From positions 160,001 to 224,000 of the forward strand of contig JBEKKK010000001.1 in NCBI GenBank assembly GCA_050010755.1: a stretch of DNA of 64,000 nt, read 5' to 3'. Positions 1 through 26,438 of this stretch are shown one piece after another. Made by a program: the position numbers and the translations under genes. The stretch comes from Candidatus Bathyarchaeia archaeon (lineage in GTDB: Archaea > Thermoproteota > Bathyarchaeia > Bathyarchaeales > Bathycorpusculaceae). Position 1 is the first letter of the stretch; each line of letters starts with the position of its first letter. Below the pieces are notes generated by a model, which searched no databases, was not told where the DNA came from, and saw only the letters and a list, made by a program, of their open reading frames with translations.

Positions 1-279
1 GGAGTGCCGGTTTTTCCGAGTCAGATAGAGATTATTCTGGAGAGGTTTCTGGAATTGGTGGGTAATTGTCAGATAATGGTTGATAAGCGTACGCCGCAGC
101 AGGAGGCCAGTTTGAAGGTTGAGATGCGGGAATCTCTAGGGCAGGATGATAAGAGGTCTTTGGCGTTCCAGATTGTTGAAGAAGTGAAGAACAGGGTGGG
201 TGTGAGCTTTAATGATGTGGTTTTTGTTCCTGCGGGAACTTTTGATGTGAAGTATAAGAAATCCCTCGTAATCAGTTGA
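1..279 (+). CDS. C-terminal fragment of phenylacetate-CoA ligase (PaaK/CapK) family adenylate-forming enzyme, truncated by window edge
   Basis: GVPVFPSQIE resembles the G-V-N-V-F-P-S-Q-I-E motif of the PaaK C-terminal domain; ends with a basic KYKK stretch. Confidence 0.65.
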   Translation, partial: GVPVFPSQIEIILERFLELVGNCQIMVDKRTPQQEASLKVEMRESLGQDDKRSLAFQIVEEVKNRVGVSFNDVVFVPAGTFDVKYKKSLVIS

Positions 280-325
280 CGGTGCTTGCGTTTCTGGGGT
301 TTCGGAGCGGGGAAGAGTTAGGAAT

Positions 326-1603
326 ATGTTGTTCTGTGTTTCGGTTTCTCACAAGCAGACGAGTCTTTCTATGTTGGAGTCTCTCAGTTTTCCGAGTGGG
401 GAGGAGGCTGCGAGAGCGTTTTGTGAGCAGGGAACGTTGGCTGAGTGTGTGCTTCTTCAGACTTGTCACAGGATTGAGATTTACGGGGTGACTGCTGATT
501 TTGCGAGGGGCGATGCTGTGGATGTGATTCTCAGGTCTTGGAGTTCTAGGGCGGGTGTGAGTTTTGATGTTTTGAGGAGGGTTTTTGAGTTGTATGATGG
601 GCGGGAGGCGTTGGCGCATCTTTTTTCTCTTGCCGCTGGGTTGGAGTCTATGGTTGTGGGTGAGGATCAGATTCTGGGGCAGGTGCGTTCGGCTTATGTT
701 GAGGCGAAGAGGGCGGGGAGTGCTGGTCGGATTCTTGATAAGGTTTTTATGAAGGCGGTGAACACGGGCAGGAGAGTGAGGACTGAGACGGGGATTAATG
801 AGGGTTCGGTTTCGGTGAGTTCTGCGGCGGTTGATTTGGCTGTGAAGGAGCTTGGGGGTCTCGAGTCGGCGACGGCGCTGGTCATCGGTGCCGGAGAGGC
901 GGGTTCTATCGCGGCGGAGACGCTTCAGAGGAGGGGTGCTAAACGGATTGTGGTTGCGAATCGAACGCGGGAGAGGGGTGAGGCTTTGGCCCTGAAGGTT
1001 TCTGGGAGGTCGATAGGTCTGGACGGTGTGTATGATGAGATTCCGAGCGTGGATCTAGTGATTTCTGCGGTGTCGGTGAAGAAGCCGATTTTGGAAGCGA
1101 GCCGTCTTAGAAGCGCGTTGGGGAAGAGTAGTAGTGGTAAGCGTTTGCTTGTTGTGGATATTTCTCAGCCGCGGGCTGTGGATGCTAAGGCTGGTTCGAT
1201 TCGTGGTCTTGTGTTGAGGAATATTGAGGATCTGAAAGGGGTTGTGGAGGATAGCATTCGGAGGAGGCGGGGTGAGGCGGAGAGGGCGAGGTTGTTGGTT
1301 GGTGAGGAGCTTGCTCGGTTTGAGCAGGAGTTGTCGTGGATTCTTGTGTTGCCTTTGGCTTCGGAGATTTATCGGAGTTTGGAGGTTGTTAGGAGGAGTG
1401 AGTTTGAGAGGGCTGTCAGGAAGATGGGTGAGTCTGATGGGCGGAAGATTTCGGTGATGGAGAGGTTTTCGAAGGAGTTGGTGGAGAGGATTATGCAGGT
1501 TCCGATGGAGCGGTTGAAGAGGGCGGCTCTTAACAATGAGGGTGAGTTGCTTTCGGCTGCGGAGAAGCTGTTCAAGAATAACCGGGGAGGCGTTGCAGAT
1601 TGA
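326..1603 (+). CDS. hemA: Glutamyl-tRNA reductase
   Basis: QTCHRIE catalytic Cys motif, GLESMVVGEDQILGQV, SVSVSSAAV, GAGEAG nucleotide-binding motif. Confidence 0.96.
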   Translation: MLFCVSVSHKQTSLSMLESLSFPSGEEAARAFCEQGTLAECVLLQTCHRIEIYGVTADFARGDAVDVILRSWSSRAGVSFDVLRRVFELYDGREALAHLFSLAAGLESMVVGEDQILGQVRSAYVEAKRAGSAGRILDKVFMKAVNTGRRVRTETGINEGSVSVSSAAVDLAVKELGGLESATALVIGAGEAGSIAAETLQRRGAKRIVVANRTRERGEALALKVSGRSIGLDGVYDEIPSVDLVISAVSVKKPILEASRLRSALGKSSSGKRLLVVDISQPRAVDAKAGSIRGLVLRNIEDLKGVVEDSIRRRRGEAERARLLVGEELARFEQELSWILVLPLASEIYRSLEVVRRSEFERAVRKMGESDGRKISVMERFSKELVERIMQVPMERLKRAALNNEGELLSAAEKLFKNNRGGVAD

Positions 1604-2871
1604 CCAGGTCTGAGAGGCTTTTTGCCAGGGCGAAGAAGTTGATTCCAGGCGGTGTGAACAGTCCGGTTCGGGCTTTTTCGCCTTATCCGTTTTTCACGAA
1701 GTCTGCGAAGGGTTCGAAGCTTACGGATGTGGATGGTGTGGAGTTTGTTGATTATTGTTTGGGTTATGGGCCTTTGATTTTGGGGCATGCTGATGAGCGG
1801 GTTATGGGTGCTGTTCGGGAGCAGTTGGGTCGTGGGTCGTTGTTTGGTACGCCTTCCGAGGGGGAGGTGGAGCTTGCTGAGTTGATCTGTAAGCTTGTGC
1901 CTTCGGCTGAGATGGTTCGGCTTGTGAGCACGGGTGGGGAGGCGACGATGAGTGCGATTAGGCTTGCGAGGGGTTTTACGGGGAGGAAGAAGGTTTTGAA
2001 GTTTGAGGGTTGTTATCATGGGGCTCATGATTGTGTGTTGGTGAAGGCGGGTTCTGGCTTGTTGACGTTCGGGATGCCTGATTCTCTTGGGGTTCCTGAG
2101 GAGACGGCTGGGAACACGGTTGTGGTGCCGTTTAATGATGTTGCTGCTTTCGAGGCGATGGTGAAGAGGGAGCGCCGTGAGCTTGCGGCGGTGATTGTTG
2201 AGCCTGTTATCGGCAACATAGGCGTTGTCCTGCCTAAGGAGGGTTTTCTTGAGGCGTTGCGGGAGATTACGGAGCAGTATGGGGTTGTTCTGGTGTTTGA
2301 TGAGGTGATTACAGGCTTCAGATTAGCCCTGGGTGGGGCTCAGGAGTTTTATGGTGTTAAGCCGGATTTGACGACTCTGGGTAAGATTCTTGGGGGTGGT
2401 TTTCCCTTGGCGGCTTTCGCCGGGCGGGAGGATATCATGCGGATGATTGCGCCTTCTGGAAAAGTGTACCAAGCCGGCACTTTCAGCGGCAATCCGGTCA
2501 GCGTTGCGGCAGGCTTGGCGGTGTTGAGAACCTTGCGGGCTCGGAGGAGCTTCTATTCTATGATGGAGAAGAAATGCGAGGGGCTTGTCAAGCAGCTGAG
2601 GCAGGTTGCGAATGATGCGAGAGTGCAGGTTCAGGTTAACAGTGTCGGTTCGATGTTTCAGATGTTCCTGTCCGAGGAGCCCGTGTTCGACTATGCCAGC
2701 GCAAAGAAGAGTGACAGCAAGAGGTTCATGCAGTTTCATCATGCGCTCCTACAGCATGGAGTTTTCATTCCGCCCTCACAGTTTGAAACCTGCTTCCTAT
2801 CTGCGGCTCACAGCGATGGAGACTTGAAGATGACGATTGAGGCTTACAAGCAGGCTCTCGAGTCAATTTGA
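1600..2871 (+). CDS. hemL: Glutamate-1-semialdehyde 2,1-aminomutase
   Basis: PGGVNSPVRAF, FEGCYHG, FDEVITGFR, PLP-lysine motif TLGKILGGG, QAGTFSGNP, PPSQFE; overlaps hemA stop by 4 nt. Confidence 0.97.
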   Translation: MTRSERLFARAKKLIPGGVNSPVRAFSPYPFFTKSAKGSKLTDVDGVEFVDYCLGYGPLILGHADERVMGAVREQLGRGSLFGTPSEGEVELAELICKLVPSAEMVRLVSTGGEATMSAIRLARGFTGRKKVLKFEGCYHGAHDCVLVKAGSGLLTFGMPDSLGVPEETAGNTVVVPFNDVAAFEAMVKRERRELAAVIVEPVIGNIGVVLPKEGFLEALREITEQYGVVLVFDEVITGFRLALGGAQEFYGVKPDLTTLGKILGGGFPLAAFAGREDIMRMIAPSGKVYQAGTFSGNPVSVAAGLAVLRTLRARRSFYSMMEKKCEGLVKQLRQVANDARVQVQVNSVGSMFQMFLSEEPVFDYASAKKSDSKRFMQFHHALLQHGVFIPPSQFETCFLSAAHSDGDLKMTIEAYKQALESI

Positions 2872-2953
2872 TTATAGCCCTGCAACGCACGCGTTGATTA
2901 TTGTGGTTCCTGTTTGAATTAGCGTTTGGTTCAGGCGTTATGGAGTTGCGATT

Positions 2954-4051
2954 ATGGGTAATCCCGAAGTTTCCGTGGTTGTTGCAACTTACAAGGGTGC
3001 AAATACGCTGAGGTATGTGTTGGAGGGTTTGAGTCAGCAGACTTTTAGGGATTTTGAGGTTGTGGCGGTTGTGAAGCCGAGTGCGGATCAAACTCTGGAG
3101 CTTCTGAGGAAGTATGCGGATCAGCTTGAAATCGAGGTTGTGACTCAGAAGAATGGGAACGTTGTGGACGCCGAACAACTTGGTTTAGAACGTGCTAAGG
3201 GAAGGATAATCGTTTTCTTTGATGATGACGCAGTTCCGAGACCGGATTGCATTGAAGAGCACGTCAAAACTTATGCAGACCAAAGGATAGGCGGTGTGGC
3301 GGGCGACCTGATTCCTTCCACTATAGCTGATGGTGTCGTGAAGGAGCTTGAGGAGGTTGAGGTGCCGCCTTCGCAGTCGGCTAGGACACGTCTTTCGGCG
3401 AGGGTCTGGGATCATCCGGTGGAGGGGCTTGAGCAATATCGCTGCTGCGTGACTAGGTGTGGTTTCATTTGGCATGGGTTTTTGTTGGCGGACAACCCAG
3501 TGGGAAACCTTGTTTATTGGAGAAAAAGGGGAATGGTAAAGTCTTTTCTGGGGCCAGGTGCCAACATGTCTGTTTTGGCCTCAGCAGGAAAAGGCACAGT
3601 GTTTGAGAAGACAGATTACTGGAGAAGAGGCTATGCGTGGGAGCAATTCTTGGCGTGGCAAGTATGGAAAAAGGGGTACTCAATGGTTCTTAATACTAAG
3701 GCGCGGGTGGAGCACATTCTTCTTGACGGGCATCTCACTGGAGGCCTTTATGCAACTAGCGTTAAGAACGCGGCGCCGGGCGAACTGGAGAAAACAGACA
3801 GCGTTGAAAAAGCGCGCGCTATTGGGTATGATCACATCAGGGAGGAGCATCTTCTCTTTTTTCGACTTTATCGCCGAGGAAGTGGGCTTTCGCTGTTTGC
3901 CAAATTCTGTTCCGTAGCAAATGATGCTTTGTATTTCTTTAAGACGGTGAGAAGTCTGCAAGAATCCAAGAATCTCAGGGTTCTGTTCGTTTCAAACTTG
4001 ATTGGTCTGAGATGGTTGTTGTCCGACGCACATGGTGCACGTCTTTCTTGA
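2954..4051 (+). CDS. Glycosyltransferase family 2
   Basis: VSVVVATY, AKGRIIVFFDDDA (DxD), GANMS. Confidence 0.85.
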   Translation: MGNPEVSVVVATYKGANTLRYVLEGLSQQTFRDFEVVAVVKPSADQTLELLRKYADQLEIEVVTQKNGNVVDAEQLGLERAKGRIIVFFDDDAVPRPDCIEEHVKTYADQRIGGVAGDLIPSTIADGVVKELEEVEVPPSQSARTRLSARVWDHPVEGLEQYRCCVTRCGFIWHGFLLADNPVGNLVYWRKRGMVKSFLGPGANMSVLASAGKGTVFEKTDYWRRGYAWEQFLAWQVWKKGYSMVLNTKARVEHILLDGHLTGGLYATSVKNAAPGELEKTDSVEKARAIGYDHIREEHLLFFRLYRRGSGLSLFAKFCSVANDALYFFKTVRSLQESKNLRVLFVSNLIGLRWLLSDAHGARLS

Positions 4052-4149
4052 AATATTGTTAGGCTGGGAATAACCTTCTAATAACGTCTTCAGGTTTTGT
4101 TGAGGTTGAAAGCACTAGCGCTCAATGCAAAATAGGTGGGTGTGACACT

Positions 4150-5370
4150 GTGAGAATTGCGTTCGTAGATGTGGACATGTCCCTGAGAACTGGGTCGAGG
4201 CGTTTTACTTGTGAGGTGGCATGTCAACTTCAGAGCATGGGGCATGAGGTCGGAATTTTCACGTCTAGGCTGGATACTCAGAGATGTTTCAGAAAGGTCC
4301 TATCTCTTCCTGTTTACGTTGCTTCGCGAAGTTCTTCTCAAGATGGGGGCGCAAGTGGTCTGGGGAGGGTTATCAGGAAGCTCGGAAAGAATGTGATAAT
4401 CAATCTCGCGAGTGAGTATAGATATGATATGGTAGAGACCGATTTCGCTTTGAAGACGAGCGAAAAGATCATGAGCATGGGATATGAAGCAGTTCTTTTT
4501 CAATACCATGGGGAGCATTGGCTTTTTCCAGTCTTCTATCACCTGAATGGAGCGAAAGGTGCCGTGTATCTTAACATGGTTCCTCCGAGGGCTGGCCGGG
4601 AGGCTTTGCCTTTTCAGAAATTGACTATGGAGCGAAGGATATTGGACAGATTGGTCAGTCTGCCTTTTGTCCATAGGTTTGAGAACGCAAGCCTCAGAAA
4701 CATCGGTCTGTTCATTGCCCCGAGCGAGTACCAGCTTCAACAGGCGACGGTGCAAGGTGTGATTGGGCAAAAGAGGGCTGCGGTTGTTCCATTAGGAGTT
4801 GATCATTCTGAGTTTTGTCCAACGGATGAAGAGGAGCCTTTTGCGCTCTATGTGGGACGGATCCATCCTCACAAGTCGCTGGAACTGGCGATGATTTCCA
4901 TGAAGAACAGGGGTTCAGACTATCCATTGGTGATTGCTGGAGATGTTGACCAAAGCAACGTCCAATATGTGGAGAGACTTCTGAGTCTGGCAGATGAATT
5001 GAAAATTTCTGACAGGTTTGAACTGATTCTGCGTCCGTCAGAAAAGCGGATTGTCAGGTTGATGCAGAGTTGTTCAGTTTTCTTGTTTCCAAGCACAATA
5101 GATACTTTTGGACTTGTGGTTCTTGAATCCATGGCTTGTGGAAAACCGGTTGTGGCCTGCAACAGAGGGGGTGTTCCAGAAATAGTCGGAGATGCGGGAT
5201 TATTGGTCGAGCCGGACGTGGCGCAGTGGAAGAGGGCCATGACAAGATTGCAGTCAGATTCTGAGTTTCGGCATGCTTTGGGACGAAAGGCATTGAAAAG
5301 ATCCGAAGCGTATTCATGGAAACATACGACTTGCCAGTTGCTTGAAGCTTTCGGCACTAACTGCGCCTAG
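4150..5370 (+). CDS. Glycosyltransferase family 4
   Basis: YVGRIHPHKS, FPSTIDTFGLVVLESMACGKPVV. Confidence 0.9.
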   Translation: MRIAFVDVDMSLRTGSRRFTCEVACQLQSMGHEVGIFTSRLDTQRCFRKVLSLPVYVASRSSSQDGGASGLGRVIRKLGKNVIINLASEYRYDMVETDFALKTSEKIMSMGYEAVLFQYHGEHWLFPVFYHLNGAKGAVYLNMVPPRAGREALPFQKLTMERRILDRLVSLPFVHRFENASLRNIGLFIAPSEYQLQQATVQGVIGQKRAAVVPLGVDHSEFCPTDEEEPFALYVGRIHPHKSLELAMISMKNRGSDYPLVIAGDVDQSNVQYVERLLSLADELKISDRFELILRPSEKRIVRLMQSCSVFLFPSTIDTFGLVVLESMACGKPVVACNRGGVPEIVGDAGLLVEPDVAQWKRAMTRLQSDSEFRHALGRKALKRSEAYSWKHTTCQLLEAFGTNCA

Positions 5371-5493
5371 CTGATGTGTGCACACGTACATCATTGGTAT
5401 GATCATTGGGGTTTGAGCCAAAAGTTTCGCTTGTGGAAGGCTTAGTAACCCTGGCAAAATCTTGGAGCCGCACAGATTAGATCGTTAGCAAGG

Positions 5494-6357
5494 GTGTCAA
5501 AATTGCTTTCTGTTGTGATTCCTGCGTTGAACAGTGCGGTAACAATTTCGGACACTCTTTCATCGATTTTCTCGAATGAAACCAGTGGCGGAAGGTTCGA
5601 GGTTCTTCTGGTTGATAATGGAAGTTGTGATGAAACGGTTGAGATAGCAAGAAGGTTTCCTGTGAAGATATTCCACTGCTCAAGAAGAGGCATAGGGCCT
5701 CCGAGAAATTTGGGGATTCAGAAGGCCCGAGGGGACATCGTAATCTTCACGGACTCTGATTGCATAGTCGAAAAAGATTGGATAACAAAGATATCCGCTT
5801 TCTTCAACCGACACTCAGAAGCTGACGGAGTCGGTGGGCCGGTATTTCCCTACCCTTATTGTCAAAATAGGATTCAGGAATTGACTGGAAAACTTTTTGT
5901 GGAAGACCAAGGTTATCCCAGAAGAATCAGGAAAATTCAACCTGGTTCCACGCAGGGGCTTATTTTCGGCTCAAACAGCGCTTACAGGAGAAGCGTGCTT
6001 GTGAAATCTGGTGGCTTCAATGAGCCGGGAGGGTCAAACCTAGAACTCGCGTTGAGGCTTGTTGCTAATGGAAAGAACCTGTTTTTCTATCCTGGCATAA
6101 TAGTGTACCACGTTTTTCCAAGCAACCTTAAGTCTATTTTCAGACAACAATTTAGGTGGGGAGCACAATCGACTCACATGAAGCGGATGCATCACCTTGA
6201 TAAGGGAGCAAGGGAAATCGTTTACATTTCTTACTTTCCTGTTCGGCGTTTGCTTTCTTTACTTTTTCCTGTGGATTTGGAAAAGAAGTTGTTACACTTT
6301 ACTCAGGTGGCGAGTTACGGTTTAGGTCGCGTCTATGGATTTCAGTTAGAATCTTGA
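5494..6357 (+). CDS. Glycosyltransferase family 2
   Basis: SVVIPALN, VDNGSCDET, FTDSDC, RQQFRWG. Confidence 0.9.
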   Translation: MSKLLSVVIPALNSAVTISDTLSSIFSNETSGGRFEVLLVDNGSCDETVEIARRFPVKIFHCSRRGIGPPRNLGIQKARGDIVIFTDSDCIVEKDWITKISAFFNRHSEADGVGGPVFPYPYCQNRIQELTGKLFVEDQGYPRRIRKIQPGSTQGLIFGSNSAYRRSVLVKSGGFNEPGGSNLELALRLVANGKNLFFYPGIIVYHVFPSNLKSIFRQQFRWGAQSTHMKRMHHLDKGAREIVYISYFPVRRLLSLLFPVDLEKKLLHFTQVASYGLGRVYGFQLES

Positions 6358-6446
6358 AGCGATGAATCTGAACCGTGAGATAGAGCCCGTATGATCGGGT
6401 TATGTGAAGCACTTGGAGTATCCGTTTGACATGTTGAGGAGAGAAG

Positions 6447-7529
6447 ATGAAAAGGAGTTTGAATCGTGCTTCAAATGCGGTACGATACGGTGTTCTGTAC
6501 TTGGGAAATTACTCTTTTCTGAAACTTATCTCTCCGAACCCAGATTATGCTGAGGTGAGGGTTACCGAGGGATGTAATAGCAGATGCGTAACGTGTAGGG
6601 CTTGGAAAAATTCGAGAGAAGGTGAATTATCTACTCAGGAAATGATCAGTGCCTTCGAGCAATTGAGAAGAATCGGGGTCGAGTCCATTCGCATCTCTGG
6701 AGGAGAGCCGTTGATTCGATCTGATATTATAGAGTTGATAAAAGAGTGCAAAAGGCTGAAATTTCGACAGATATACCTCGCAACAAACGGCCTTCTGCTT
6801 CATCAGAAGGCTGAAGATCTTGTTGAGGCCGGAGTTACCCATTTTGGCGTTTCGTTAGATGGAATTGAAGAGACTAATGATATGATTCGAGGAGTCCCTG
6901 GAAGTTACGAGAGAGTCTCAGAAGGCATTCGTGCTGTAAAAGGTTCTATGAAGAAAGTGGGGGTTAGCTTTCCTGTAACGGTCTTTACGACCTTGCTGAG
7001 GCAGAATATTCGTGAGGTGCCGCGGCTCTTGAAACTCTGTGAAGATATTGGTGCAAACTGGTGTTTCAGTTTGCTGGATGGGAATCTTGATTTTTTTGAG
7101 GGCGTTGATATTTCAGAATTGGTGGTTAACGATTGGAAAGTCATTGATGAAACCATAGATTATCTGCAGAAGCTATGGAGGGAGAAACCTTGGCTTGTTT
7201 ATTCTGGACCGAACATTCTTGAATATGCCAGAAACTACCTTAAGGGGGTAAACAGGGATGATGATGTTCCGTGCACTCTCGGATACAAGCTGATCTCACT
7301 AGGATCCAGGGGAGAAGTCTATCCCGGATGCTATGTTTTCAAGTCTATCGGAAACATAAGGCATAAGGCACTAGGTGAAATAGTGAAGTCTAAGGAATAC
7401 GCAGCCCTTGCTGAGAAAATGTATCGTGGAGAATGCGCGGGCTGCACCTTCTTCTATGAAGACAACGTTCTAATCAGGAACATGTTTCCAAGAGTGGAAA
7501 GAATAAGAAGTTTAATGAGAAGCAAATGA
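6447..7529 (+). CDS. Radical SAM protein with SPASM/twitch domain
   Basis: CNSRCVTC (CxxxCxxC), SGGEPL, SLDG..HD-like motif, C-terminal C..G...GEVYPGC...CAGC. Confidence 0.9.
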   Translation: MKRSLNRASNAVRYGVLYLGNYSFLKLISPNPDYAEVRVTEGCNSRCVTCRAWKNSREGELSTQEMISAFEQLRRIGVESIRISGGEPLIRSDIIELIKECKRLKFRQIYLATNGLLLHQKAEDLVEAGVTHFGVSLDGIEETNDMIRGVPGSYERVSEGIRAVKGSMKKVGVSFPVTVFTTLLRQNIREVPRLLKLCEDIGANWCFSLLDGNLDFFEGVDISELVVNDWKVIDETIDYLQKLWREKPWLVYSGPNILEYARNYLKGVNRDDDVPCTLGYKLISLGSRGEVYPGCYVFKSIGNIRHKALGEIVKSKEYAALAEKMYRGECAGCTFFYEDNVLIRNMFPRVERIRSLMRSK

Positions 7530-8479
7530 ACATGGCTCTTCCACGCACTCTTTTTTTGACGTTTGATGTAGAAGATTTCATCAATGATAGATCAATCAAG
7601 GCTTTGAATTGCATTCTGGAGATGTTGAAAAAGAATAAACTTGGGGCTTTATTCTTTATCACGGGACACATGGCGGAAAAACTTGCCGGGCAGGAAGAGA
7701 CTCTCGGACTTCTTCGCGAACATCAAATAGGCTATCATTCATCATGCCATTCGGTGAGACCTACAATTCTTGAATACACGGATGTGGAGAACTATGATGA
7801 AGCTCTCTTGGAGTCCGAAAAAAGGGAGACTTCACACATAAATCCGCTGACAGGAGAAATTGAAGGAAAGGGCGGAATTCACATCTTGCGAGAGTTATTT
7901 GGGAACAGCAGGATTGAAGCTTTTAGGGCTCCAGATTACTGTTGGGCTCCCCCGCATCTGGAAGCACTGAACAAGTTGGGTTTCCATTATGATTTCTCTA
8001 CAAAAATGGTCCACGAGCCTGCTTCCTACAAGGGTATAACCTTTTACCCGTACCCTATGTGTCATTATTGGAAAGGAAGGTCTAGCTACCTTAGGCTAGC
8101 ACGCTGTGTTGCTGTTAAAAAGACGACTGTTTTGAATTTTCATGATTGGGATTTTGTAAACAGTAAAGCTTGGAATTACTTTTACAGAAACGGTAATCCT
8201 GAAAAGTTGTTCAAGGTTCCTCCCCGAAGCCATGAATCGATGGAAAACATGTTTACCAGCTTTGAGTCCTTTCTGAAAAGGGTCAAGGCTCTTGAAAAGA
8301 CAGGAATAGTCAGAGTCACGCCAAAGCTTGAAAACCCTGGAAAACGCCTTGAGATTAACAGAGTTCCTGTGGAACAGGTGTGCAGAGAAATTACGCGTTG
8401 GTTTAAAGGCGATTATTTCTACCAAATAAGATATCTTAATCAGCACTTCAAAACGTTTTTTGAAGCAGATCACGATTGA
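7526..8479 (+). CDS. Polysaccharide deacetylase family protein
   Basis: FLTFDVED, LFFITG, IGYHSSCH, FRAP; paralog of 25384-26340. Confidence 0.8.
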   Translation: MNMALPRTLFLTFDVEDFINDRSIKALNCILEMLKKNKLGALFFITGHMAEKLAGQEETLGLLREHQIGYHSSCHSVRPTILEYTDVENYDEALLESEKRETSHINPLTGEIEGKGGIHILRELFGNSRIEAFRAPDYCWAPPHLEALNKLGFHYDFSTKMVHEPASYKGITFYPYPMCHYWKGRSSYLRLARCVAVKKTTVLNFHDWDFVNSKAWNYFYRNGNPEKLFKVPPRSHESMENMFTSFESFLKRVKALEKTGIVRVTPKLENPGKRLEINRVPVEQVCREITRWFKGDYFYQIRYLNQHFKTFFEADHD

Positions 8480-8594
8480 AATGTCTGCAATTAGGCATTT
8501 GGCAGGTTTAGGGCAATGAAGCCTTAAAAGCGACACCCAAGTGAAACTTGACTGATTAGAGAATGTAATGCTCAAAATATCAGGAGTGATTTTG

Positions 8595-9572
8595 ATGCGT
8601 TTAACATCTAGAATCAAAAAGTCGAAGGCGATGATCCGTCTTGTGAGACCTTTTGAATTGGCTCCTAGTGACCTGATTTATGCAATTTTTGTTAGGGAGG
8701 ATGGGAAGAGTTATGAGATACCTTCCATGAAAGGCCAGCGCTATCTTTCTCTGGATGGTGCCGCTGAGACCTGTCGGAAGACCGTTGAATTGGGCATCCC
8801 CGGGATGATGGTGTATGGCGTTTTGAAGGAGAAGGATGCGGACGGTTCCATAGCTCTCGGGAAGAATGCTTTTCACAGGAAAATCTTTCGAAGACTCAGG
8901 AAGGAGGTTGGTGACGATCTGGTCCTCATATCCAACCTCTGTCTGTGCGATTACACGGCAGAGGAGTTTTGCGTTTACTCAGATAAGGGAAAGGTGCTTA
9001 ATGAGAAGACTGCGGAGATGCTGGGAAAGATGGCTGTAGTTCACGCTGAGGGTGGCGCGGATGTGATTGCTCCTGCGGGAATGTGTGACGGGCAGGTTGG
9101 ATGCATAAGGGCGGCTTTGGATAGAGAGGGCTTTGAAGACGTTGCCGTGATGAGTTACATCAAGACTGACAGCTGTCTGTTTGAGCCTTATTTTGAAGCT
9201 ATGACATTGTCGAATACTCCTAGACGCGGTGTGGATTCCAGCAAGTTCCGAACGGACGTAATCAACGAGAAGATGTTCATGCAAAAGGTCGACTTGGACA
9301 TCAACGAAGGAGCGGACATGGTTATCGTGAAACCCGCGCTGACGAATCTGGATCTTGTGCTCGCAGTCAAACAGAGGTATCCTACGATTCCAATCGCTGC
9401 CTATCAGGTAAGCGGCGAATATGCCATGATCAAGCTGCTGGCGGAGCATACTCGTGTTGATGAGAAGACTCTGTTCTTGGAGACACTAAGTTCCATTAAG
9501 AGGGCAGGAGCAGACATGATACTGACGTATTACGCTCAGGAAGCAGCGAAACTCTTGACTGAGCGAATGTAG
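8595..9572 (+). CDS. hemB: Porphobilinogen synthase (HemB/ALAD) family protein, divergent active site
   Basis: CLCDYTAEEFC Zn cysteines, EGADMVIVKPA, AYQVSGEYAMI, IKRAGADMILTY; several A-site residues substituted (see findings). Start chosen after GGAGTGA; ORF track starts 8568. Confidence 0.85.
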   Translation: MRLTSRIKKSKAMIRLVRPFELAPSDLIYAIFVREDGKSYEIPSMKGQRYLSLDGAAETCRKTVELGIPGMMVYGVLKEKDADGSIALGKNAFHRKIFRRLRKEVGDDLVLISNLCLCDYTAEEFCVYSDKGKVLNEKTAEMLGKMAVVHAEGGADVIAPAGMCDGQVGCIRAALDREGFEDVAVMSYIKTDSCLFEPYFEAMTLSNTPRRGVDSSKFRTDVINEKMFMQKVDLDINEGADMVIVKPALTNLDLVLAVKQRYPTIPIAAYQVSGEYAMIKLLAEHTRVDEKTLFLETLSSIKRAGADMILTYYAQEAAKLLTERM

Positions 9573-9757: not shown

Positions 9758-10453
9758 TTGCCAAAGAAACGTGTTTTGAGGAAAAGAATGGTTGTGTTTT
9801 CTCCGCATCCTGACGATGGAGCTCTGGGCTGTGGAGGTACCATCGCGAAGAGGGTGAGTGAAGGGTTTGACGTTTATGTGGTCATGTTGACGGATGGCAG
9901 GCATGCGTTTTCCAAGAGGCTAGGGATAAGCTCGGAGCCAAGTCCGGAAGAAGTGAAGCAGATTAGGAGACTAGAATTCACAAAGGCTATGAAGATGCTG
10001 GGCGTGCCCGAGAAAAATCTTCTTTTCTTTGATTTCGAAGATGGAACATTAGAGATGCATAGGGACGAAGCTGAGGAAAAAACAATAGCTATAATTGAAA
10101 AGTATTGGCCTGCTGACATGTATTACCCGTTTAGAAGAGATTGTCATCCGGATCATCAGGCAACGAACTCGATTGTGCGTCACGCACTGCAGCAGCTGAG
10201 GTATGCCGGATCGTATGAATACACTATTACACACACGTACGCGCATCTGGGTCCGTTAATGGAGAGGTTCCTAAGTCTTCTCAAGAGAGACGAGGTTGAA
10301 GAAGACATTTCAGCGTTCCTCAATCTCAAAGAGAGGGTACTTGACGAGTACAAAAGCGTAACGACAATAATCTCAAGTAAGCAAAAAAAACCTCTTCACA
10401 CAAGCGTGAAAAGATTCTTGAAGAAGAAAGAGATATTCCGCGAATCAAAGTAG
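9758..10453 (+). CDS. PIG-L/LmbE family N-deacetylase
   Basis: SPHPDDGALGCGG, TDGR, HPDH. Confidence 0.88.
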   Translation: MPKKRVLRKRMVVFSPHPDDGALGCGGTIAKRVSEGFDVYVVMLTDGRHAFSKRLGISSEPSPEEVKQIRRLEFTKAMKMLGVPEKNLLFFDFEDGTLEMHRDEAEEKTIAIIEKYWPADMYYPFRRDCHPDHQATNSIVRHALQQLRYAGSYEYTITHTYAHLGPLMERFLSLLKRDEVEEDISAFLNLKERVLDEYKSVTTIISSKQKKPLHTSVKRFLKKKEIFRESK

Positions 10454-10586: not shown

Positions 10587-11711
10587 ATGATAGAGTTCTT
10601 GTTGTTGCTTTTTGTCTTGCTGTTCGCGCTTTTTGTCGGGATTTATGGGATTTACTTTGTGTGTGTCAGTGTCTGGGCGAAAAGACCTTGGGGAATAACG
10701 ATTGACAACCACTTTCAATCCAAGGTGTCAATTCTCATTCCTGTTCACAATGAAGAAAAAACCATAACGGACAAGCTGGAAAACATCAAGAGCGTCGATT
10801 ATCCCAAAGAAAACATCGAGATAATAGTGACTGACGATGCTTCTGATGATGATACTCTGCAAACAGTGAAAAGTTTCACAGAGCTTAACCCAGTTCTCAA
10901 CATCAGGGTCGTCGAAAATAATGTGCGAATGGGGAAATCGGTTGCTTTGAACGGGGCTCTGCCTTTTTCTTCAAACGATGTGGTCATAGTTTCTGATGCA
11001 GACACCCAGTGGCCTGAGGATATGCTTAGGAAAACGTTGCCTTATCTTGCGGATTCGAAAGTCGGGGCAGTGACTTGCAGAGGGGTGAACAGAAACAGAG
11101 GTGAGACTTGGGTGACAAAGGGTGAAGATACTTACCTTCATTTTACTAATTTGATAAGGCTCGGCGAATCGAAACTCCATTCGACAATAAGGTTTGAAGG
11201 GGGGTTCTGTGCTTTTAAGAAGAACGCTTTTGACAGGTTTGACGCAGAAACTGGCTCGGATGATTCTGGGACGGCGTTAAAGGTGGTTCAGCGGGGATAC
11301 AGAGCAATAATGGTGCCTGACGCGGTTTTCTACACGGCTTTCCCAACTCTTTTTGCCGACAAGTTGAAAACGAAGGCACGCCGCGCGACTCAACTCGTCA
11401 GTCTGTGGACAAAATGCTCGAATCTTCTGTTTCAGAGGCGACTTCTTCTGCCCAAAAAAATCGTCATCCCCGAACTGCTGCTGTTCACTCTTAGTCCATT
11501 GATTCTCGCAGGCTTAATCGTAACAACGGCTTCAGCGATTCTGCTATCCCCGTTCTCACTTTTTACCTTGAGCGTTCTTCTTTTCGTTGGTTGTTTGTTG
11601 ATTCTTGCTCGAAGAACATTCATTGAGGTTCTGGTTGACAATTTCGTTCTGTTCTATTCACTATTGTCAAACGTGCGTGGCAGACGCTATACCGTTTGGG
11701 AAAAATCTTAA
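10587..11711 (+). CDS. Membrane-bound glycosyltransferase family 2
   Basis: N-terminal TM, SILIPVHNE, DDASDD, SDAD, C-terminal TMs. Confidence 0.88.
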   Translation: MIEFLLLLFVLLFALFVGIYGIYFVCVSVWAKRPWGITIDNHFQSKVSILIPVHNEEKTITDKLENIKSVDYPKENIEIIVTDDASDDDTLQTVKSFTELNPVLNIRVVENNVRMGKSVALNGALPFSSNDVVIVSDADTQWPEDMLRKTLPYLADSKVGAVTCRGVNRNRGETWVTKGEDTYLHFTNLIRLGESKLHSTIRFEGGFCAFKKNAFDRFDAETGSDDSGTALKVVQRGYRAIMVPDAVFYTAFPTLFADKLKTKARRATQLVSLWTKCSNLLFQRRLLLPKKIVIPELLLFTLSPLILAGLIVTTASAILLSPFSLFTLSVLLFVGCLLILARRTFIEVLVDNFVLFYSLLSNVRGRRYTVWEKS

Positions 11712-11802: not shown

Positions 11803-12792
11803 ATGGAGAATCGTAGGCTTAGGGTCGGCGTAGTGGGGTTGGGGAAGATGGGTCTCGTTCATTCCAGTATTTTGAGTGTTTTACCCAACGCTGAAGTTAC
11901 AATTTTGTGCGAGAAGAGTGGTATGCTCCGACGATTCTTTAGCAAGATCTTCAGGAGAGTGCCCGTCGTAGATGATGTTTCCATGTTTTCTGACCAGAAT
12001 TTGGACGCGGTTTTCGTAACTACTCCCATCAACTCTCACTTTCCAGTCGCGCACGCGGTTTATTCCGACAAGTTAGCCTCAAACCTTTTCGTTGAGAAGA
12101 CTTTGGCCAGCAGTTTTGGCGATTCTCAGGAGCTCTGTGCCAGGGCTCGGGAGGCGGGTGGCATCAACATGGTGGGCTATCTTAGAAGGTTCTACGTGAC
12201 TTTCAAGAAGGCAAAGAGTCTTTTGGATGAGAGCACGATCGGTGAGTTGTCTACTTTCAAGGCATATGCGTTTTCTTCTGACTTCGTTGGAAACGAGAAA
12301 GATGGCGAATTTGGGGGGGTTCTGAGCGATTTGGGCTGTTACGCGATGGATTTGGCGCTGTGGTTCTTCGGTGATGTCAATGTGAAGCCGGAGAGTGTAG
12401 CTCGGATTTCAGAGGGTGATGTTCAAAATGTTGTGCGGTTTGAGCTGAACCGGGCAGATGGTTTCAGTGGTACATGTGATGTTTCTTGGCGAATGAAGAA
12501 CTATAGAATGCCTGAAGTTGGTTTTTTGGTAGAGGGTTCGAAGGGAAAAGTCCAAGTTGATGATGACAGAGTTGAGTTGAAATTAAATGATGGAAATTCA
12601 CGCAGATGGTTCCGACATGATCTTTCGGACAACGTGCCTTTCTGGCTGTCAGCTCCTGAATACTACAGAGAGGACGAGTATTTTGTACGGTGTGCACTTG
12701 ATGGCTTTCGGACGGAGCCTTCTTTTGAATCGGCATGCAAGGTGGACAAGATGATTGACGACGTGAAGAGCAGATTGAAGCTGAGAGGTTGA
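11803..12792 (+). CDS. Gfo/Idh/MocA family oxidoreductase
   Basis: GVVGLGKMG, FVEKT, GGVLSDLGCY. Confidence 0.88.
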   Translation: MENRRLRVGVVGLGKMGLVHSSILSVLPNAEVTILCEKSGMLRRFFSKIFRRVPVVDDVSMFSDQNLDAVFVTTPINSHFPVAHAVYSDKLASNLFVEKTLASSFGDSQELCARAREAGGINMVGYLRRFYVTFKKAKSLLDESTIGELSTFKAYAFSSDFVGNEKDGEFGGVLSDLGCYAMDLALWFFGDVNVKPESVARISEGDVQNVVRFELNRADGFSGTCDVSWRMKNYRMPEVGFLVEGSKGKVQVDDDRVELKLNDGNSRRWFRHDLSDNVPFWLSAPEYYREDEYFVRCALDGFRTEPSFESACKVDKMIDDVKSRLKLRG

Positions 12793-13712
12793 GTGTTATG
12801 GACAAAAAATTTTTCCTCGTGGGGGATAACCCTTTTCACAGTATAAGTCATCTTTCGCAGGAACGGAGCAGGGCGAGGAGTGATTTCGCTACTCAGCCTG
12901 AGAGCGCTGCACGTCTTGTGTCTTTAGCAGTTGAGAATGGTGCAAATGGATTCATGTTTTCTGTCAGCGACACTACTCTCGGAATTCTGAGAAAGTTGCG
13001 GATAGAAGGGGTAACGTCAGGGTTAGATATTTTTGCAATCGTGCCCTATGCCTACGAATATGTGAGGCTGGCTGCACAGTCTGGCGGTCTGGTCGGGCTG
13101 GGGCAGCGATTCGGCAAGCAGCTCTTGCTTTCCGGCAATCTCGGGGCCGTTGGGGGCGGCTTGAAGGGCGTTCTGCGGATGAATCCTGAGTCGCTTCTGA
13201 GGACGTATCTGAGTTTTGAGCTCTCGAGAATCCGCTCGGCAGCTGGAAAGCACGCGAATGTGGAGTCAGTTTTGCTGCATGAGGTTATAACTGACATGGC
13301 TTTGGCGCTGGATATGGACTGGCTGTTCAAGGCCTACGTGAAGTTTCTGCGCGGTAAGGACATTGTACCCGGTTTCAACACTTGCAATTTTGCTTGTTTG
13401 GCTGATAAGTTCGAAAGATGGGGATTTGAGCTGGGTGAGGTTGTTATTGCCGCGCCTTTCAACAAGGTTGGTTTTCAAATGAACCCGTCAAGGGAAGAGT
13501 GCGAAAAGGCTCTTTCGAAGTTGAAGGTTTCTGTCACGATTGCGATAAGTGTCTTGGCCGCTGGGTATCTGAAAGTTCCTGAAGCAGTGGATTATGTCGC
13601 TGGGTTGCCAAACGTGAAAGGTTTGGCTGTCGGCGTCTCAAAAGAAGCTCACGCTAGAGATACTTTCAGGTTCATTAGAGAAAGGTTTGATAGTGCACGC
13701 GCTCTAGGTTAG
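12789..13712 (+). CDS. Conserved hypothetical protein (probable TIM-barrel) of archaeal glycosylation loci
   Basis: Long ORF coupled to the oxidoreductase; LVGDNPFH N-terminus, PFNKVGFQMNP, LAAGYL. Confidence 0.6.
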   Translation: MSVMDKKFFLVGDNPFHSISHLSQERSRARSDFATQPESAARLVSLAVENGANGFMFSVSDTTLGILRKLRIEGVTSGLDIFAIVPYAYEYVRLAAQSGGLVGLGQRFGKQLLLSGNLGAVGGGLKGVLRMNPESLLRTYLSFELSRIRSAAGKHANVESVLLHEVITDMALALDMDWLFKAYVKFLRGKDIVPGFNTCNFACLADKFERWGFELGEVVIAAPFNKVGFQMNPSREECEKALSKLKVSVTIAISVLAAGYLKVPEAVDYVAGLPNVKGLAVGVSKEAHARDTFRFIRERFDSARALG

Positions 13713-19466: not shown

Positions 19467-21584
19467 ATGAATGAGTCAGACTTAACGGGCTTAAGACCAG
19501 CTCAACTTTCAGTCACCGTACTCGTTGCGACTGTTGCGCTTTGGTTTTCCGTGATATTTAATCTAGTGGTTGTTCGGGAAGTACTTGGATTCGTCTACCT
19601 CACTTTTTTGCCGGGTTTTGCACTTCTACGCTTGCTAAGGTTGAAGCTTGAAGTAGTCGAATCAATAGTTTTTGCGGTTGGTCTGAGCATCGCTTTCCTG
19701 ATGGTTGTAGGCCTTCTCTTAAATCTCCTAGGACCTTTGATTGGTATCTCAGGGCCTCTTGCACTGACCCCTTTAATGGTAGTTGTTACTGCAATTGTGC
19801 TATTGCTCTGGTTCGTTCGGCGAGACTATTATGATATTCGCGTATTTTCTTTTGGGTTCAAAAAGCTAATTGCCATTGGAGCCGTCGCGTCTGGGATAAT
19901 TATCTGTAGCGTGATTGGGGCAATTTTAGTTAACGCTCCTCCGCATAGCAATAACCTGATCTTGCTTTTCACGCTCGCTTTAATATCGATCCTCGTTGGA
20001 ATTTCAGTTTTCTCCAAAAGACTAGTGCCTCCTGAATCATATCCTCTAATCCTATTTGCTATCGCAACTGCGCTTCTGCTTCCCGTTTCCCTATTTTCTG
20101 AATACATACATGGTGGAGATATTTTCAGTGAATATGTTGCCTTCAAGCTCACGCTAAGCAGCTCTTTTTGGAACCCGGCAATATCAGGCAGAGTATATGC
20201 AATGCTGAGTGTGACGATTCTTCCGACGATATATTCTAACATTTTGGGTTTAGAACCAACTTGGATACTGAAAATTGTTTATCCTTTGATTTTTGCGATA
20301 GTCCCTCTAGGAGTATTTCAGCTCTTCAAATCCAAATTCGGAAAGGAAACTGCCTTTTTCTCCGTCGTTTTCTTTGTTTCAAACCTCGTTTTCTTCTCAG
20401 AAATCGTAACGCTCGCAAGACAGATGATTGGTGAACTGTTCTTCATCTTGCTGTTTCTGACGATCTTCAGTAAGAATATTAAGGGTTACGCAAAATGGTC
20501 GTGCTTTTGCATTTTCAGCTTTGGATTAGCCGTATCACATTATGCGTTGTCCTACATCTTTTTGATTTTCATCATTGCTTTTTGGCTTTTTAGTTTTTTC
20601 AGCAAACGCAAGATGTCAGTAAGTGTTGGCATGGTTTTCACATTTGCCGCCATCACTTTTGCTTGGTACATCTACAGTTCTGCATCATCAACATTTAACG
20701 ACCTGCTGAACATGATCAACAATATAACATCCAATTTTACCTCCGATTTTCTTAATCTTCAGTCCCGAGGAAGTTCGGTCTTGCAGGGCACCGGCCTTGA
20801 GAGCGGAGTGGGAACGTTCTGGCATATATGGGGCACATACCTTTACTATGCTACTGAAATACTCATCGTGGTCGGTTTTCTCGGCCTACTACTAAGGCAA
20901 CGAAGATCGTTTTTCAAGGACGAATATTATATTATGACTTTTCTTAACATGGCGCTTCTTGTGGCGTGCATCGTTGTGCCTAATTTGGCGACCAGTTTTA
21001 ACATGACCAGATTCTACCAACTGTCACTTTTCTTCTTAGCACCATTCTGCGTAATCGGAGGGAGGGATATCGTGCGCTTTTTGTCACGGAAAAGAATCAA
21101 AGAAAAATACCTTTTGGCAATCGTTGTCTTAGCGGTAATCATACCTTTCTTTCTCTTTCAGACTGACTTTGTTTATGAAGTCGCCAAGGAACAAAGCATT
21201 TCGTTGCCGCTCAGTTCATACAGGTTAAGTTCTTATCAGCTAACTTATGATGGCGTTCTCAAACCAACTGAGGTCTCGGGGGCAAGATGGTTATTGCAAT
21301 TCAACAGCCTGAACGAAACCATCTATTCAGATTGGCAGTTCGGAATAATGTTTGACTACGTGGGGATTCCAGAAATTATCGCGGGCGGCACTATCGCACC
21401 ATCTTCGGAAGTGCCGATGGGGAAAGGTTCTCTCCTTTATTTAGGGGAATATAATATAATCGACGGAGTCGTCTCCATCAGTTACGGGTCTGCTCCGCTA
21501 AATATCACTCAGATTGACCCTAATCTCAATGGCACAAATCTAGTCTATTCCAGCGGATCTTCTGAAATATACCAAATCCCTTAG
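19467..21584 (+). CDS. DUF2206-type multi-pass membrane protein (GT-C-like)
   Basis: Many TMs, HGGDIFSEY, ARQMIGELF, SHY, TRFYQ, C-terminal soluble domain. Confidence 0.75.
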   Translation: MNESDLTGLRPAQLSVTVLVATVALWFSVIFNLVVVREVLGFVYLTFLPGFALLRLLRLKLEVVESIVFAVGLSIAFLMVVGLLLNLLGPLIGISGPLALTPLMVVVTAIVLLLWFVRRDYYDIRVFSFGFKKLIAIGAVASGIIICSVIGAILVNAPPHSNNLILLFTLALISILVGISVFSKRLVPPESYPLILFAIATALLLPVSLFSEYIHGGDIFSEYVAFKLTLSSSFWNPAISGRVYAMLSVTILPTIYSNILGLEPTWILKIVYPLIFAIVPLGVFQLFKSKFGKETAFFSVVFFVSNLVFFSEIVTLARQMIGELFFILLFLTIFSKNIKGYAKWSCFCIFSFGLAVSHYALSYIFLIFIIAFWLFSFFSKRKMSVSVGMVFTFAAITFAWYIYSSASSTFNDLLNMINNITSNFTSDFLNLQSRGSSVLQGTGLESGVGTFWHIWGTYLYYATEILIVVGFLGLLLRQRRSFFKDEYYIMTFLNMALLVACIVVPNLATSFNMTRFYQLSLFFLAPFCVIGGRDIVRFLSRKRIKEKYLLAIVVLAVIIPFFLFQTDFVYEVAKEQSISLPLSSYRLSSYQLTYDGVLKPTEVSGARWLLQFNSLNETIYSDWQFGIMFDYVGIPEIIAGGTIAPSSEVPMGKGSLLYLGEYNIIDGVVSISYGSAPLNITQIDPNLNGTNLVYSSGSSEIYQIP

Positions 21585-25383: not shown

Positions 25384-26340
25384 ATGCGTAAACTTTTTCT
25401 GACGTTCGACACTGAAGATTTCATCAGCAACAACTCTATCCCAGTTTTGAAATGGATTCTCGAACAACTCAGAAAGCATGATTTGATAGCGCTCTTCTTC
25501 ATAACTGGCAACATGGCTGAAAAGCTTCAAAACTCCCCAGCTGTCGTGGACCTCCTCAGCGAACATCAAATAGGCTACCACGCATCCAGCCATTCAGTCC
25601 GCCCTGCAATCTTCGAATTCACCGACGTCGAAAACTACCAGCAAGCCCGCAAAATCTCCCTCGAAAGAGAAACGGCAAGCATCAACCCCTTAACAGGAGA
25701 AATCGAAGGCAAAGGAGGAATTCTCCTTCTAAGAGAACTATTTCCTCACAGACAAATAGCGTCCTTTAGAGCTCCAGGACATTGCTGGACGCCACCTCAC
25801 TTGGAGGCACTTAGAACTCTAGGCATAACCTTCGATTTTTCCACCAACCTTTCATCGACAACTATCAACTTTGAAGGCACAACTTTCTACTCTTATCCTA
25901 CCCTCGGTCATTGGGAAGGGAAAAGATGGGAATATCGTCGCCTACTTACATCTGTACTCAAGAAGAAACTGATTGTTTTGACATGCCATCCAAGCCTGCT
26001 GGTCAACAAAACCGCATGGGATTCAATTTATTTCTACTCCAACCCGAAGACGCTTACTTCACCCTCCCCAAGGACCCCTGCAGAAGCAAGACACTTGCTT
26101 CACAACTTCGATTCGTTGCTCAGCAACATCTCAACACTGCGTAAAATGCAGATCATCAACACAACACCAAAACTGGAATCAACGAACAATACCTTGAAAC
26201 TCACCGACTCAGGCATTAGAGAATGCTACAACTGGAGTATGAGGTGGGCAATAAGTCTCCACCATCATCCAAAATTCATCTTTAACCATTTCTTGGAATA
26301 CTTCAAACAAACACGTTCCAGCGACCCGAGAGCGGAGTGA
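25384..26340 (+). CDS. Polysaccharide deacetylase family protein (paralog of 7526-8479)
   Basis: FLTFDTEDFI, HQIGYH, INPLTGEIEGKGGI identical in both copies. Confidence 0.8.
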   Translation: MRKLFLTFDTEDFISNNSIPVLKWILEQLRKHDLIALFFITGNMAEKLQNSPAVVDLLSEHQIGYHASSHSVRPAIFEFTDVENYQQARKISLERETASINPLTGEIEGKGGILLLRELFPHRQIASFRAPGHCWTPPHLEALRTLGITFDFSTNLSSTTINFEGTTFYSYPTLGHWEGKRWEYRRLLTSVLKKKLIVLTCHPSLLVNKTAWDSIYFYSNPKTLTSPSPRTPAEARHLLHNFDSLLSNISTLRKMQIINTTPKLESTNNTLKLTDSGIRECYNWSMRWAISLHHHPKFIFNHFLEYFKQTRSSDPRAE

Positions 26341-26438
26341 ACGAAACATCCTAAGCAAGAGTTAAGAACTACGTTCGCAACTATTGGAAACAAATTATCC
26401 TTAATAGATTTCGCAAAGAAAGCAAGAAGGACCCTACA

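Follow-up and report, generated by a model that had tools for sequence, protein, structure and literature searches.

Gene content of the locus

This report concerns a 64,000-nucleotide stretch of DNA (the window; G000:C1:160001-224000) from the genome of an uncultured peat archaeon of the Bathyarchaeia (G000; 2.19 Mb in 8 contigs, 93.5% complete), and in particular a homolog of porphobilinogen synthase (PBGS, HemB) encoded there, which we call HemB*. Gene coordinates are those of the window unless marked C1. HemB* is encoded on the + strand at 8568–9572. The ATG at 8595 is its likely start, since it has a GGAG 8 nt upstream and homologs begin there. HemB* is a PBGS paralog with a remodeled A-side lid, and the genes around it form a glycan locus.

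The genes leading up to HemB* are also on the + strand. The window opens inside the gene for a PaaK-like acyl-coenzyme A (CoA) ligase (LIG; TIGR02155, PDB 4r1l), of which positions 1–279 encode the C-terminal 92 aa. The whole gene spans G000:C1:158990-160279, with its start 1010 bp upstream of the window. It is followed by hemA, encoding glutamyl-tRNA reductase (326–1603; TIGR01035, 352.7 bits against a cut-off of 209.55), and hemL, encoding glutamate-1-semialdehyde (GSA) 2,1-aminomutase (1600–2871; TIGR00713, 611.8 bits against a cut-off of 527.3). Three glycosyltransferase genes recognized by profile matches come next (GT2 at 2954–4051, GT4 at 4150–5370 and GT2 at 5494–6357), and this block (2954–6357) is the variable part of the locus. 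Genes for a radical S-adenosylmethionine (SAM)/SPASM enzyme (6447–7529) and a polysaccharide-deacetylase-like, NodB-type protein (7526–8479, with a paralog at 25384–26340) complete the series. A PIG-L family GlcNAc de-N-acetylase, again assigned by profile match, is encoded downstream of HemB* at 9758–10453 (+ strand).

A preliminary description of this DNA, made without database searches, had listed a ligase, hemA and hemL running into glycosyltransferases, and a HemB homolog between two deacetylases. Profile searches bear this out, with hemA and hemL both above their equivalog cut-offs. The list itself was right, but it left out the radical-SAM/SPASM gene at 6447–7529, and most of LIG turned out to lie outside the window.

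HemB* retains the catalytic core of PBGS

HemB* matches PF00490 with 312.2 bits (cut-off 24.6) and narrowly passes the NCBIfam equivalog NF006762 with 315.4 bits (cut-off 297). Its AlphaFold2 model has a predicted local distance difference test (pLDDT) score of 93.2, lowest in the lid. Foldseek aligned the model with solved PBGS chains at template modeling (TM) scores of 0.88–0.92 and root-mean-square deviations of 1.3–2.3 Å, and the model has the TIM-barrel fold of PBGS with its N-terminal arm. The sequence of that arm is changed, from RxRRLR to RIKKSK.

Residues were compared with E. coli PBGS chain 1b4e and 11 canonical HemB sequences (6 from Bathyarchaeia and 5 from Terriglobia). Conservation was scored in the 120 closest database homologs, which are the best 120 matches listed (74–100% identity), and in 69 HemB* copies translated from 68 loci, with identities down to 62%. 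The canonical lid triad is Arg204/Arg215/Gln219 in the numbering of chain 1b4e, one below the Arg205/Arg216/Gln220 of the literature. Positions in HemB* are given in its own numbering. The residue numbers of the E. coli and human enzymes, and the roles of the P-side Ser and Tyr, follow the structural literature.

HemB* retains the CxCx7C zinc site (C125, C127, C135), the Schiff-base lysines K199 and K255, and the YQVSGEY and TY motifs, as the preliminary description had claimed and as the comparison with 1b4e and the 11 canonical sequences upholds. The three cysteines and both lysines are invariant across the 120 listed homologs. Among the locus-derived copies that cover each position, the cysteines are present in 60 of 60, K199 in 64 of 64, K255 in 68 of 68 and Y321 in 67 of 67; at position 282, 66 have Ser and 2 have Thr. 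The available text of PMC7729013 describes the catalytic zinc as required for the Km-determining substrate to bind. The retention of the P-site, of both lysines and of the zinc argues for a PBGS-like condensation of two substrates that still operates with free 5-aminolevulinate (ALA) in the P-site.

The A-side lid is remodeled

All three positions of the canonical lid triad have changed. Position 209 is Phe instead of Arg in 120/120 listed homologs (FYGPFR has become LF(E/Q)P(F/Y)F). Position 224 has gone from Arg to Ser in 113/120 and to Pro in 7/120 (DRKSYQ has become DSSKFR), and position 228 from Gln to Arg in 120/120. No sequence of the HemB* clade, whether among the 120 listed homologs or the 69 locus-derived copies, has Arg at 209 or 224. 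Outside the triad, Asp123 is replaced by Asn (DxCxC to NxCxC, 120/120) and Ser170 by Ala (APS to APA, 114/120), HemB* has Phe for Tyr at position 205, and its lid is three residues longer than the canonical one. The preliminary description had named NLCLC, APA and the loss of Arg205 and of Arg216/Gln220 as a lost A-site set; the comparison with 1b4e agrees, and the changes are fixed or nearly so in the listed homologs.

That description had also counted the Glu of the allosteric Mg site in the same set. This Glu is indeed lost, with Lys at position 240 in 120/120 listed homologs, but we do not regard it as an A-site change, since it mirrors the Mg-independent state of metazoan and fungal PBGS for which we rely on the available text of PMC7729013.

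A broad set of 151 sequences was made up of the query, P0022 and 149 representatives of PBGS drawn from a 50%-identity library. Of these, 123 have the triad R-(R/K)-Q. The F-S-R triad is confined to the query, P0022 and two fragments; most of the other 24 are fragments or unusual, divergent sequences. When HemB* was set against canonical sequences, 13 of the 17 discriminating columns fell in the zinc loop, the APS turn, the lid and the Lys255 segment (Fisher p 5.5e-7, for segments that were chosen after seeing the data).

As far as the available text of PMC7729013 goes, the carboxyl group of the Km-determining substrate bonds to basic residues of the active-site lid, so the residues lost from HemB* would be those that hold the A-side carboxylate. 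Other basic residues of the lid are conserved among the listed homologs, namely R219 (118/120), K/R226 (119/120) and R228 (120/120), and an anionic group may therefore still bind there. The preliminary description had entered the caveat that other lid arginines could stand in for the lost ones, and with these three residues keeping the lid basic, that caveat stands.

HemB* forms a separate clade

An exhaustive search of the 50%-identity library found one full-length representative of the HemB* clade, at 77% identity; the next full-length matches were 42% and 40% identical. In a tree of 70 rows (quick IQ-TREE, with Shimodaira–Hasegawa-like approximate likelihood ratio test (SH-aLRT) support only), the 16 HemB* rows form one clade with a support of 99. 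Together with three divergent sisters they form a clade that also has a support of 99, on a stem of 0.45. The six canonical Bathyarchaeia HemB sequences group among the other canonical sequences, and the phylogeny sets HemB* apart from them. Terminal branches within the HemB* clade measure 0.04–0.24, against a whole-tree median of 0.48.

The three sisters are P0123 and P0124, which are the two full-length matches at 42% and 40%, and the 226-aa fragment P0126. They too have lost both lid arginines and have Arg at 228. They are 40–52% identical to HemB* and branch with it. P0123 additionally lacks the first zinc cysteine, and P0124 is a singleton, closest (40–44% identity) to HemB* members.

Across 401 Bathyarchaeia genomes, HemB-like matches are bimodal. 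Ten genomes have a copy 62–100% identical to HemB* (in one case a fragment only), and all ten belong to the same order as the genome of the window. About 106 have a HemB-like copy at 48% identity or less, and no full-length match in the 401 genomes falls between 48% and 62%. Six genomes, 92–100% complete, have HemB* only (G000, G022, G023, G025, G216 and G385), and three have both types (G231, G332 and G350). G231 carries a full canonical cluster with its own hemA as well as a HemB* cassette with a second hemA, and G332 has two hemA genes, one per cluster. Because these two genomes hold both types, each with its own hemA, we take the two types to be not interchangeable and the cassette to carry its own ALA supply. 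HemB* is absent from four genomes congeneric with G000.

Some copies carry stop codons. The cassette of G350 (C1:2248918-2274471; loci L041 and L042) is decaying: its HemB* contains a TGA and its hemA is broken by stops, and an intact canonical cluster lies elsewhere in the genome. G025 has two HemB* copies (on C49 and C2), one of them with a TAA.

The stop codons in these two copies, and the narrow pass of the NCBIfam equivalog cut-off (315.4 against 297), could be taken to mean that HemB* is an inactive relic or a pseudo-enzyme. We find this hardly credible. The terminal branches in the clade are very short, the catalytic residues are invariant while the derived residues are fixed, and the columns that discriminate the two classes lie mostly in active-site segments (13/17, with the post hoc choice of segments noted above).

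Genomes with HemB* only lack the rest of the tetrapyrrole pathway

In G000, HemB* is the sole match to PF00490 and the hemA at 326–1603 is the sole hemA; both are in this locus. The preliminary description had noted that hemC and hemD are missing from the window, and we found neither gene in the window or anywhere else in the genome (2.19 Mb, 93.5% complete). It had also asked whether a second hemB exists and whether hemC and hemD might lie just upstream. There is no second hemB in G000, and hemC and hemD are found neither upstream nor in the five other HemB*-only genomes.

The same searches succeed in relatives that carry canonical HemB. For hemC (PF01379), the count is 0/6 in HemB*-only genomes and 6/6 in the canonical carriers among 41 relatives, always beside hemB-hemL. 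For hemD (PF02602), it is 0/6 and 5/5, respectively. The 31 relatives without a HemB match likewise lack hemC. Five HemB*-only genomes were tested for TP_methylase (PF00590), and each has one weak match (63–73 bits), which is probably diphthine synthase. Canonical carriers have six matches each, five of them strong and beside hemB and one equally weak. HemB* never adjoins hemC, hemD or cobA in the loci examined. This genomic context argues that the product of HemB* is not a tetrapyrrole precursor.

One could still suppose that HemB* serves as housekeeping PBGS in a cryptic route to tetrapyrroles or oligopyrroles, with later enzymes (perhaps the neighboring radical-SAM proteins) that cannot be recognized. 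It is after all the sole HemB in six genomes, and the best matches of the neighboring radical-SAM proteins, weak as they are, are of the AhbD/NirJ and BchE/HpnJ/BzaD types. We consider this very unlikely: hemC, hemD and the corrin or siroheme methyltransferases were not found in HemB*-only genomes by searches that find them in relatives, G231 and G332 keep a canonical cluster beside the HemB* cassette, four congeners do without the island, and the radical-SAM scores are far under the family cut-offs.

The radical-SAM/SPASM gene at 6447–7529 is a case in point. We considered identifying it with AhbD or NirJ and rejected this, as its best family match scores 116.8 bits against a cut-off of 500 and its likeness to AhbD, NirJ and MoaA is merely generic. 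In many other loci, B12-binding radical-SAM genes lie directly upstream of HemB* (L061:271-1608, L086:7288-8817 and L069:7807-9324; also in G216 and G023), with best family matches that are BzaD-like or HpnJ-like and below the cut-offs. Searches for corrin genes came up empty in some genomes with such a gene, and these would have to salvage cobalamin.

A conserved cassette in glycan loci

We called and clustered open reading frames (ORFs) in 68 HemB* loci. Fourteen loci have at least 10 kb of upstream sequence. HemB* is linked to hemA in 12 of these, to hemL in 11, to LIG in 11 and to a GNAT acyltransferase gene in 9; most of the misses upstream are loci that begin at hemA or hemL at the locus edge. 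Within 10 kb of HemB*, 295/324 ORFs are on its strand. A radical-SAM gene of the SPASM or B12-binding type is present in 16/18 loci with at least 5 kb on both sides. In these same 18 loci, a deacetylase of the NodB or PIG-L type is present in 17, a clustered glycosyltransferase in 15 and a flanking GFO-type dehydrogenase in 12. The three loci without a clustered glycosyltransferase still carry GT4s, a UDP-sugar dehydrogenase or a Wzx flippase, as judged by Pfam. The recurrence of hemA, hemL, LIG, the GNATs, a deacetylase and a radical-SAM gene across HemB* loci speaks for the association on which the preliminary description had relied.

Downstream of HemB* the order is looser. PIG-L follows directly in 20/36 loci with at least 2.5 kb of downstream sequence. 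The commonest neighbor is GT2c, a GT2 with membrane segments (10587–11711 in the window, + strand), found in 21/29 loci with at least 6 kb downstream. A GFO/IDH/MocA sugar dehydrogenase together with either a DUF362 protein or a conserved 307-aa protein was also found downstream in 21 of those 29. In the window, the dehydrogenase gene at 11803–12792 (+ strand, profile match) is followed by the 307-aa protein, which has no family match and recurs with the GFO gene (12789–13712, + strand). A second trio, on the + strand at 25384–28341, comprises a deacetylase-like protein (25384–26340), a DUF362 protein (26439–27338) and a GFO dehydrogenase (27436–28341). The GFO-type dehydrogenase is always paired with DUF362 (as at 26439–28341) or with the 307-aa protein (as at 11803–13712), as if these were alternative partners.

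Immediately upstream of the window, on the same strand, are genes for an HTH_45 regulator, a 166-aa protein, a DUF1616 protein, a 257-aa protein (unk257), an Eis-like GNAT and LIG. By language-model features, unk257 resembles an Eis-type GNAT with an SCP2 domain, and its predicted structure has TM scores of 0.6–0.74 to GNAT/Eis clusters, so it would be a second Eis-like GNAT. These two GNATs are the conserved acyltransferases. The preliminary description had proposed that a ligase, acyltransferases and deacetylases act with HemB*. The link to all three kinds of gene is conserved, but the acyltransferases are the upstream GNATs and not the FemAB-like genes (Acetyltransf_6; 21853–22959, 28576–29703 and 29707–30858) or the hexapeptide transferase gene (16878) within the window. 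We rejected these in-window genes as partners because they do not recur with HemB*.

LIG scores 273 bits against TIGR02155, below the cut-off of 646, and matches PDB 4r1l with an E value of 7e-73, which suggests a fairly close relative of the true phenylacetate-CoA ligases. Among the 41 relatives, orthologs at 64% identity or more are found only in G000, G022 and G023, that is, in 3/4 HemB* genomes and 0/37 others; the other relatives have paralogs at 37% identity or less. No LIG ortholog was found in G025, whose contigs are short.

A compact cassette recurs in G231, L075, L090 and L069. It consists of LIG, hemA, in some cases hemL, a deacetylase, two GNATs, a B12-binding radical-SAM gene and HemB*, and has no GFO gene. 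Such a self-contained block might suggest that HemB* makes an ALA-derived small molecule, porphobilinogen (PBG) or an analog, that is released or used free as a pigment, metal ligand or signal, with the glycan genes as mere neighbors in a variable island; pairs of CoA ligases and GNATs are also known from small-molecule pathways. We think this improbable, because every locus examined, including the three without clustered glycosyltransferases, is a same-strand glycan locus, a sugar deacetylase is present in 17/18, and no transporter, nonribosomal peptide synthetase or polyketide synthase gene is conserved with the cassette in the loci surveyed. The deacetylase, acyl-CoA ligase and GNAT are conserved together inside glycan loci.

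The glycan locus is a variable island

DNA comparison with congeners delimits the glycan locus as a 53,920-bp variable island between flanks at C1:151706 and window position 45626. The same flanks are 16,269 bp apart in G002 and 2,095 bp apart in G004. A tRNA-Thr gene (46586–46662) lies about 1 kb inside the right flank. Short stretches of about 30–270 bp at about 35200–37900 and at 46037–46169 match many places in all four congeners at 70–100% identity, which points to a small repeat or mobile element, present in multiple copies, at the distal end of the island. The segment at 36–38 kb has a low GC content (37%).

The window also encodes further glycosyltransferases, a DUF2206 membrane protein (19467–21584) and a Wzx-type flippase (30913–32517). 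Like the three FemAB-like genes, which are in the same island, the DUF2206 and flippase genes do not recur with HemB*. Seventeen sequencing runs contain the window stretch, and none of them is listed as RNA data.

Proposed function

We put the probability at roughly 55% that HemB* is a neofunctionalized PBGS paralog working outside tetrapyrrole synthesis, in a branch from ALA to a monopyrrole that supplies an acyl decoration for amino sugars. The preliminary description had already placed HemB* outside tetrapyrrole synthesis and in a glycan-decoration module, and the missing hemC and hemD and the conserved linkage support this. The pyrrole product, its CoA activation, the N-acyl transfer and the order of the steps are what we infer from the genes and their context.

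The cassette's own glutamyl-tRNA reductase (hemA) and GSA aminomutase (hemL) would make ALA from Glu-tRNA. One ALA would be bound by HemB* in the P-site, which is unchanged (Schiff-base Lys255, Ser282, Tyr321), and condensed at the retained Lys199/zinc site with a second carbonyl substrate to give a PBG-type monopyrrole. The radical-SAM enzyme probably tailors this monopyrrole, and the PaaK-like ligase would turn one of its carboxylates into a CoA thioester. The PIG-L or NodB-type deacetylases would bare amino groups on sugars of the GlcNAc type, and the two Eis-like GNATs would pass the acyl group to them. Assembly of the glycan would fall to the neighboring glycosyltransferases, and its export to a Wzx-type flippase.

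The preliminary description had suggested that a partner other than ALA takes the A-side; we see several candidates for this substrate, ALA among them. We give an even chance to two kinds of compound taken together: ALA derivatives whose carboxyl group is blocked, as in an amide or a CoA thioester, and other amino-ketones, for instance a 2-amino-3-keto sugar. The loss of the carboxylate clamp favors partners that have no free carboxylate. Free ALA, giving true PBG with the carboxylate held by the relocated R219/K226/R228, is a serious possibility that falls short of even odds. It is favored by these relocated basic residues and by a ligase of the aryl-acetate type, since an enzyme closest to aryl-acetate CoA ligases would suit true PBG, which has an acetate side chain. 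Some other substrate is unlikely.

A bolder and more tentative version, which we suspect does not hold, is that HemB*, as the first member of the PBGS family to serve a purpose other than tetrapyrroles, carries out a mixed Knorr-type condensation of the P-site ALA with an A-site partner that has no free carboxylate. That partner would be ALA tethered through its carboxyl group (as a CoA thioester or sugar amide) or a 2-amino-3-keto sugar produced by the deacetylase and the GFO dehydrogenase. If this were true, the product, a pyrrole linked or fused to a sugar, would put the modification of these archaeal cell-surface glycans in a chemically new class.

HemB* might instead no longer be a pyrrole synthase, and catalyze an aldol reaction on a keto-sugar or the cyclization of ALA-CoA to an aminocyclopentenone ring of the C5N type. 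In moenomycin, an amide bond joins a ring derived from ALA to a uronic acid, and here, as in C5N pathways, an acyl-CoA ligase lies beside the ALA supply. The lost carboxylate clamp and the GFO-type sugar dehydrogenases that flank HemB* in 12/18 loci are also compatible with such a change. We nevertheless doubt it strongly, because both lysines, the zinc site and the P-side Ser and Tyr are kept, as expected if a PBGS-like reaction still joins two substrates, with the P-site taking free ALA, and the compact cassettes have no GFO gene.

Several points weigh against a monopyrrole branch for glycan decoration. PIG-L adjoins HemB* in only 20/36 loci and the GFO gene flanks it in 12/18, so neither is obligatory. 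With four conserved basic residues kept in the lid, the A-side may still take ALA, and the product may be ordinary PBG. The linkage of ligase, GNAT and deacetylase also fits other orders of steps; for example, a ligase of the CapK/VpsH type (PMC13463779, as far as its available text describes it) could possibly amidate a uronic acid with the aminomethyl group of the pyrrole. The genomes are metagenome-assembled, and the absence of hemC and hemD rests on completeness values of 92–100%. The decay of the cassette in G350 and the lack of the island in four congeners indicate that its function is dispensable. Finally, the proposed function is read from genes and sequence.

Significance

A conserved PBGS paralog with its own ALA supply, in genomes where the later pathway was not found, would give the PBGS family a second biological role. 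It also bears on annotation, since the presence of hemA, hemL and hemB in Bathyarchaeia is now read as partial heme or B12 capacity, which would be wrong for the HemB* clade. The cassette, with five to eight soluble enzymes that can be expressed, lends itself to finding a new pyrrole-forming reaction and a new glycan decoration, and HemB* is a natural experiment on how the A-site of PBGS sets substrate choice.

Comparison with known systems

We know of no other fate for PBG synthase. Full-text literature searches found nothing on a HemB paralog in glycan loci, on hemB without hemC and hemD in Bathyarchaeia, or on another fate of PBGS. The available text of PMC7242693 treats the route from ALA to uroporphyrinogen III as part of modified-tetrapyrrole synthesis.

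HemB* is 36–39% identical to solved canonical PBGS chains. Like the canonical enzymes of E. coli (1b4e), Pyrobaculum (5lzl) and Chlorobium (1w1z), it has the PBGS fold (TM about 0.9) and length, the three-cysteine zinc site, two Schiff-base lysines and the P-side Ser and Tyr. It differs from them in the lid, where Arg/Arg(Lys)/Gln is replaced by Phe/Ser/Arg and three residues are added, in the metal-side Asp (now Asn), in the APS motif (now APA), in the N-terminal arm and Mg site, and in the lack of adjacent hemC, hemD or cobA.

The C5N pathways of moenomycin and manumycin-type compounds combine an ALA synthase/cyclase, an ALA-CoA ligase and an amide synthetase, and moenomycin carries its ALA unit on a sugar acid. 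The HemB* cassette likewise has an ALA supply of its own, and its PaaK-like ligase and two GNATs may be the counterparts of the ligase and the amide-forming enzyme. However, its ALA would come from the C5 route (hemA and hemL) and not from an ALA synthase, and its ALA-converting enzyme would be a PBGS paralog. No class-II aminotransferase of the ALA synthase type (a pyridoxal phosphate-dependent cyclase) is among the conserved clusters of HemB* neighbors.

A further parallel is offered by cassettes that tailor surface polysaccharides with N-acyl groups or amino acids and that combine a deacetylase or a uronic acid with a CapK/PaaK-like ligase and an acyltransferase. An example is VpsH, on which the addition of glycine to the Vibrio cholerae polysaccharide VPS depends, according to the available text of PMC13463779. 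Such cassettes and HemB* loci both pair a ligase of the PaaK/CapK superfamily with acyltransferases in a Wzx-type glycan locus, and in both the decoration would be dispensable and variable among strains. LIG is much closer to the true phenylacetate-CoA ligases (4r1l, E 7e-73) than the similarity reported there for VpsH. The HemB* cassette would also differ from the VpsH type in the source of its acyl or amine donor, which three 'heme' enzymes would produce locally from Glu-tRNA.

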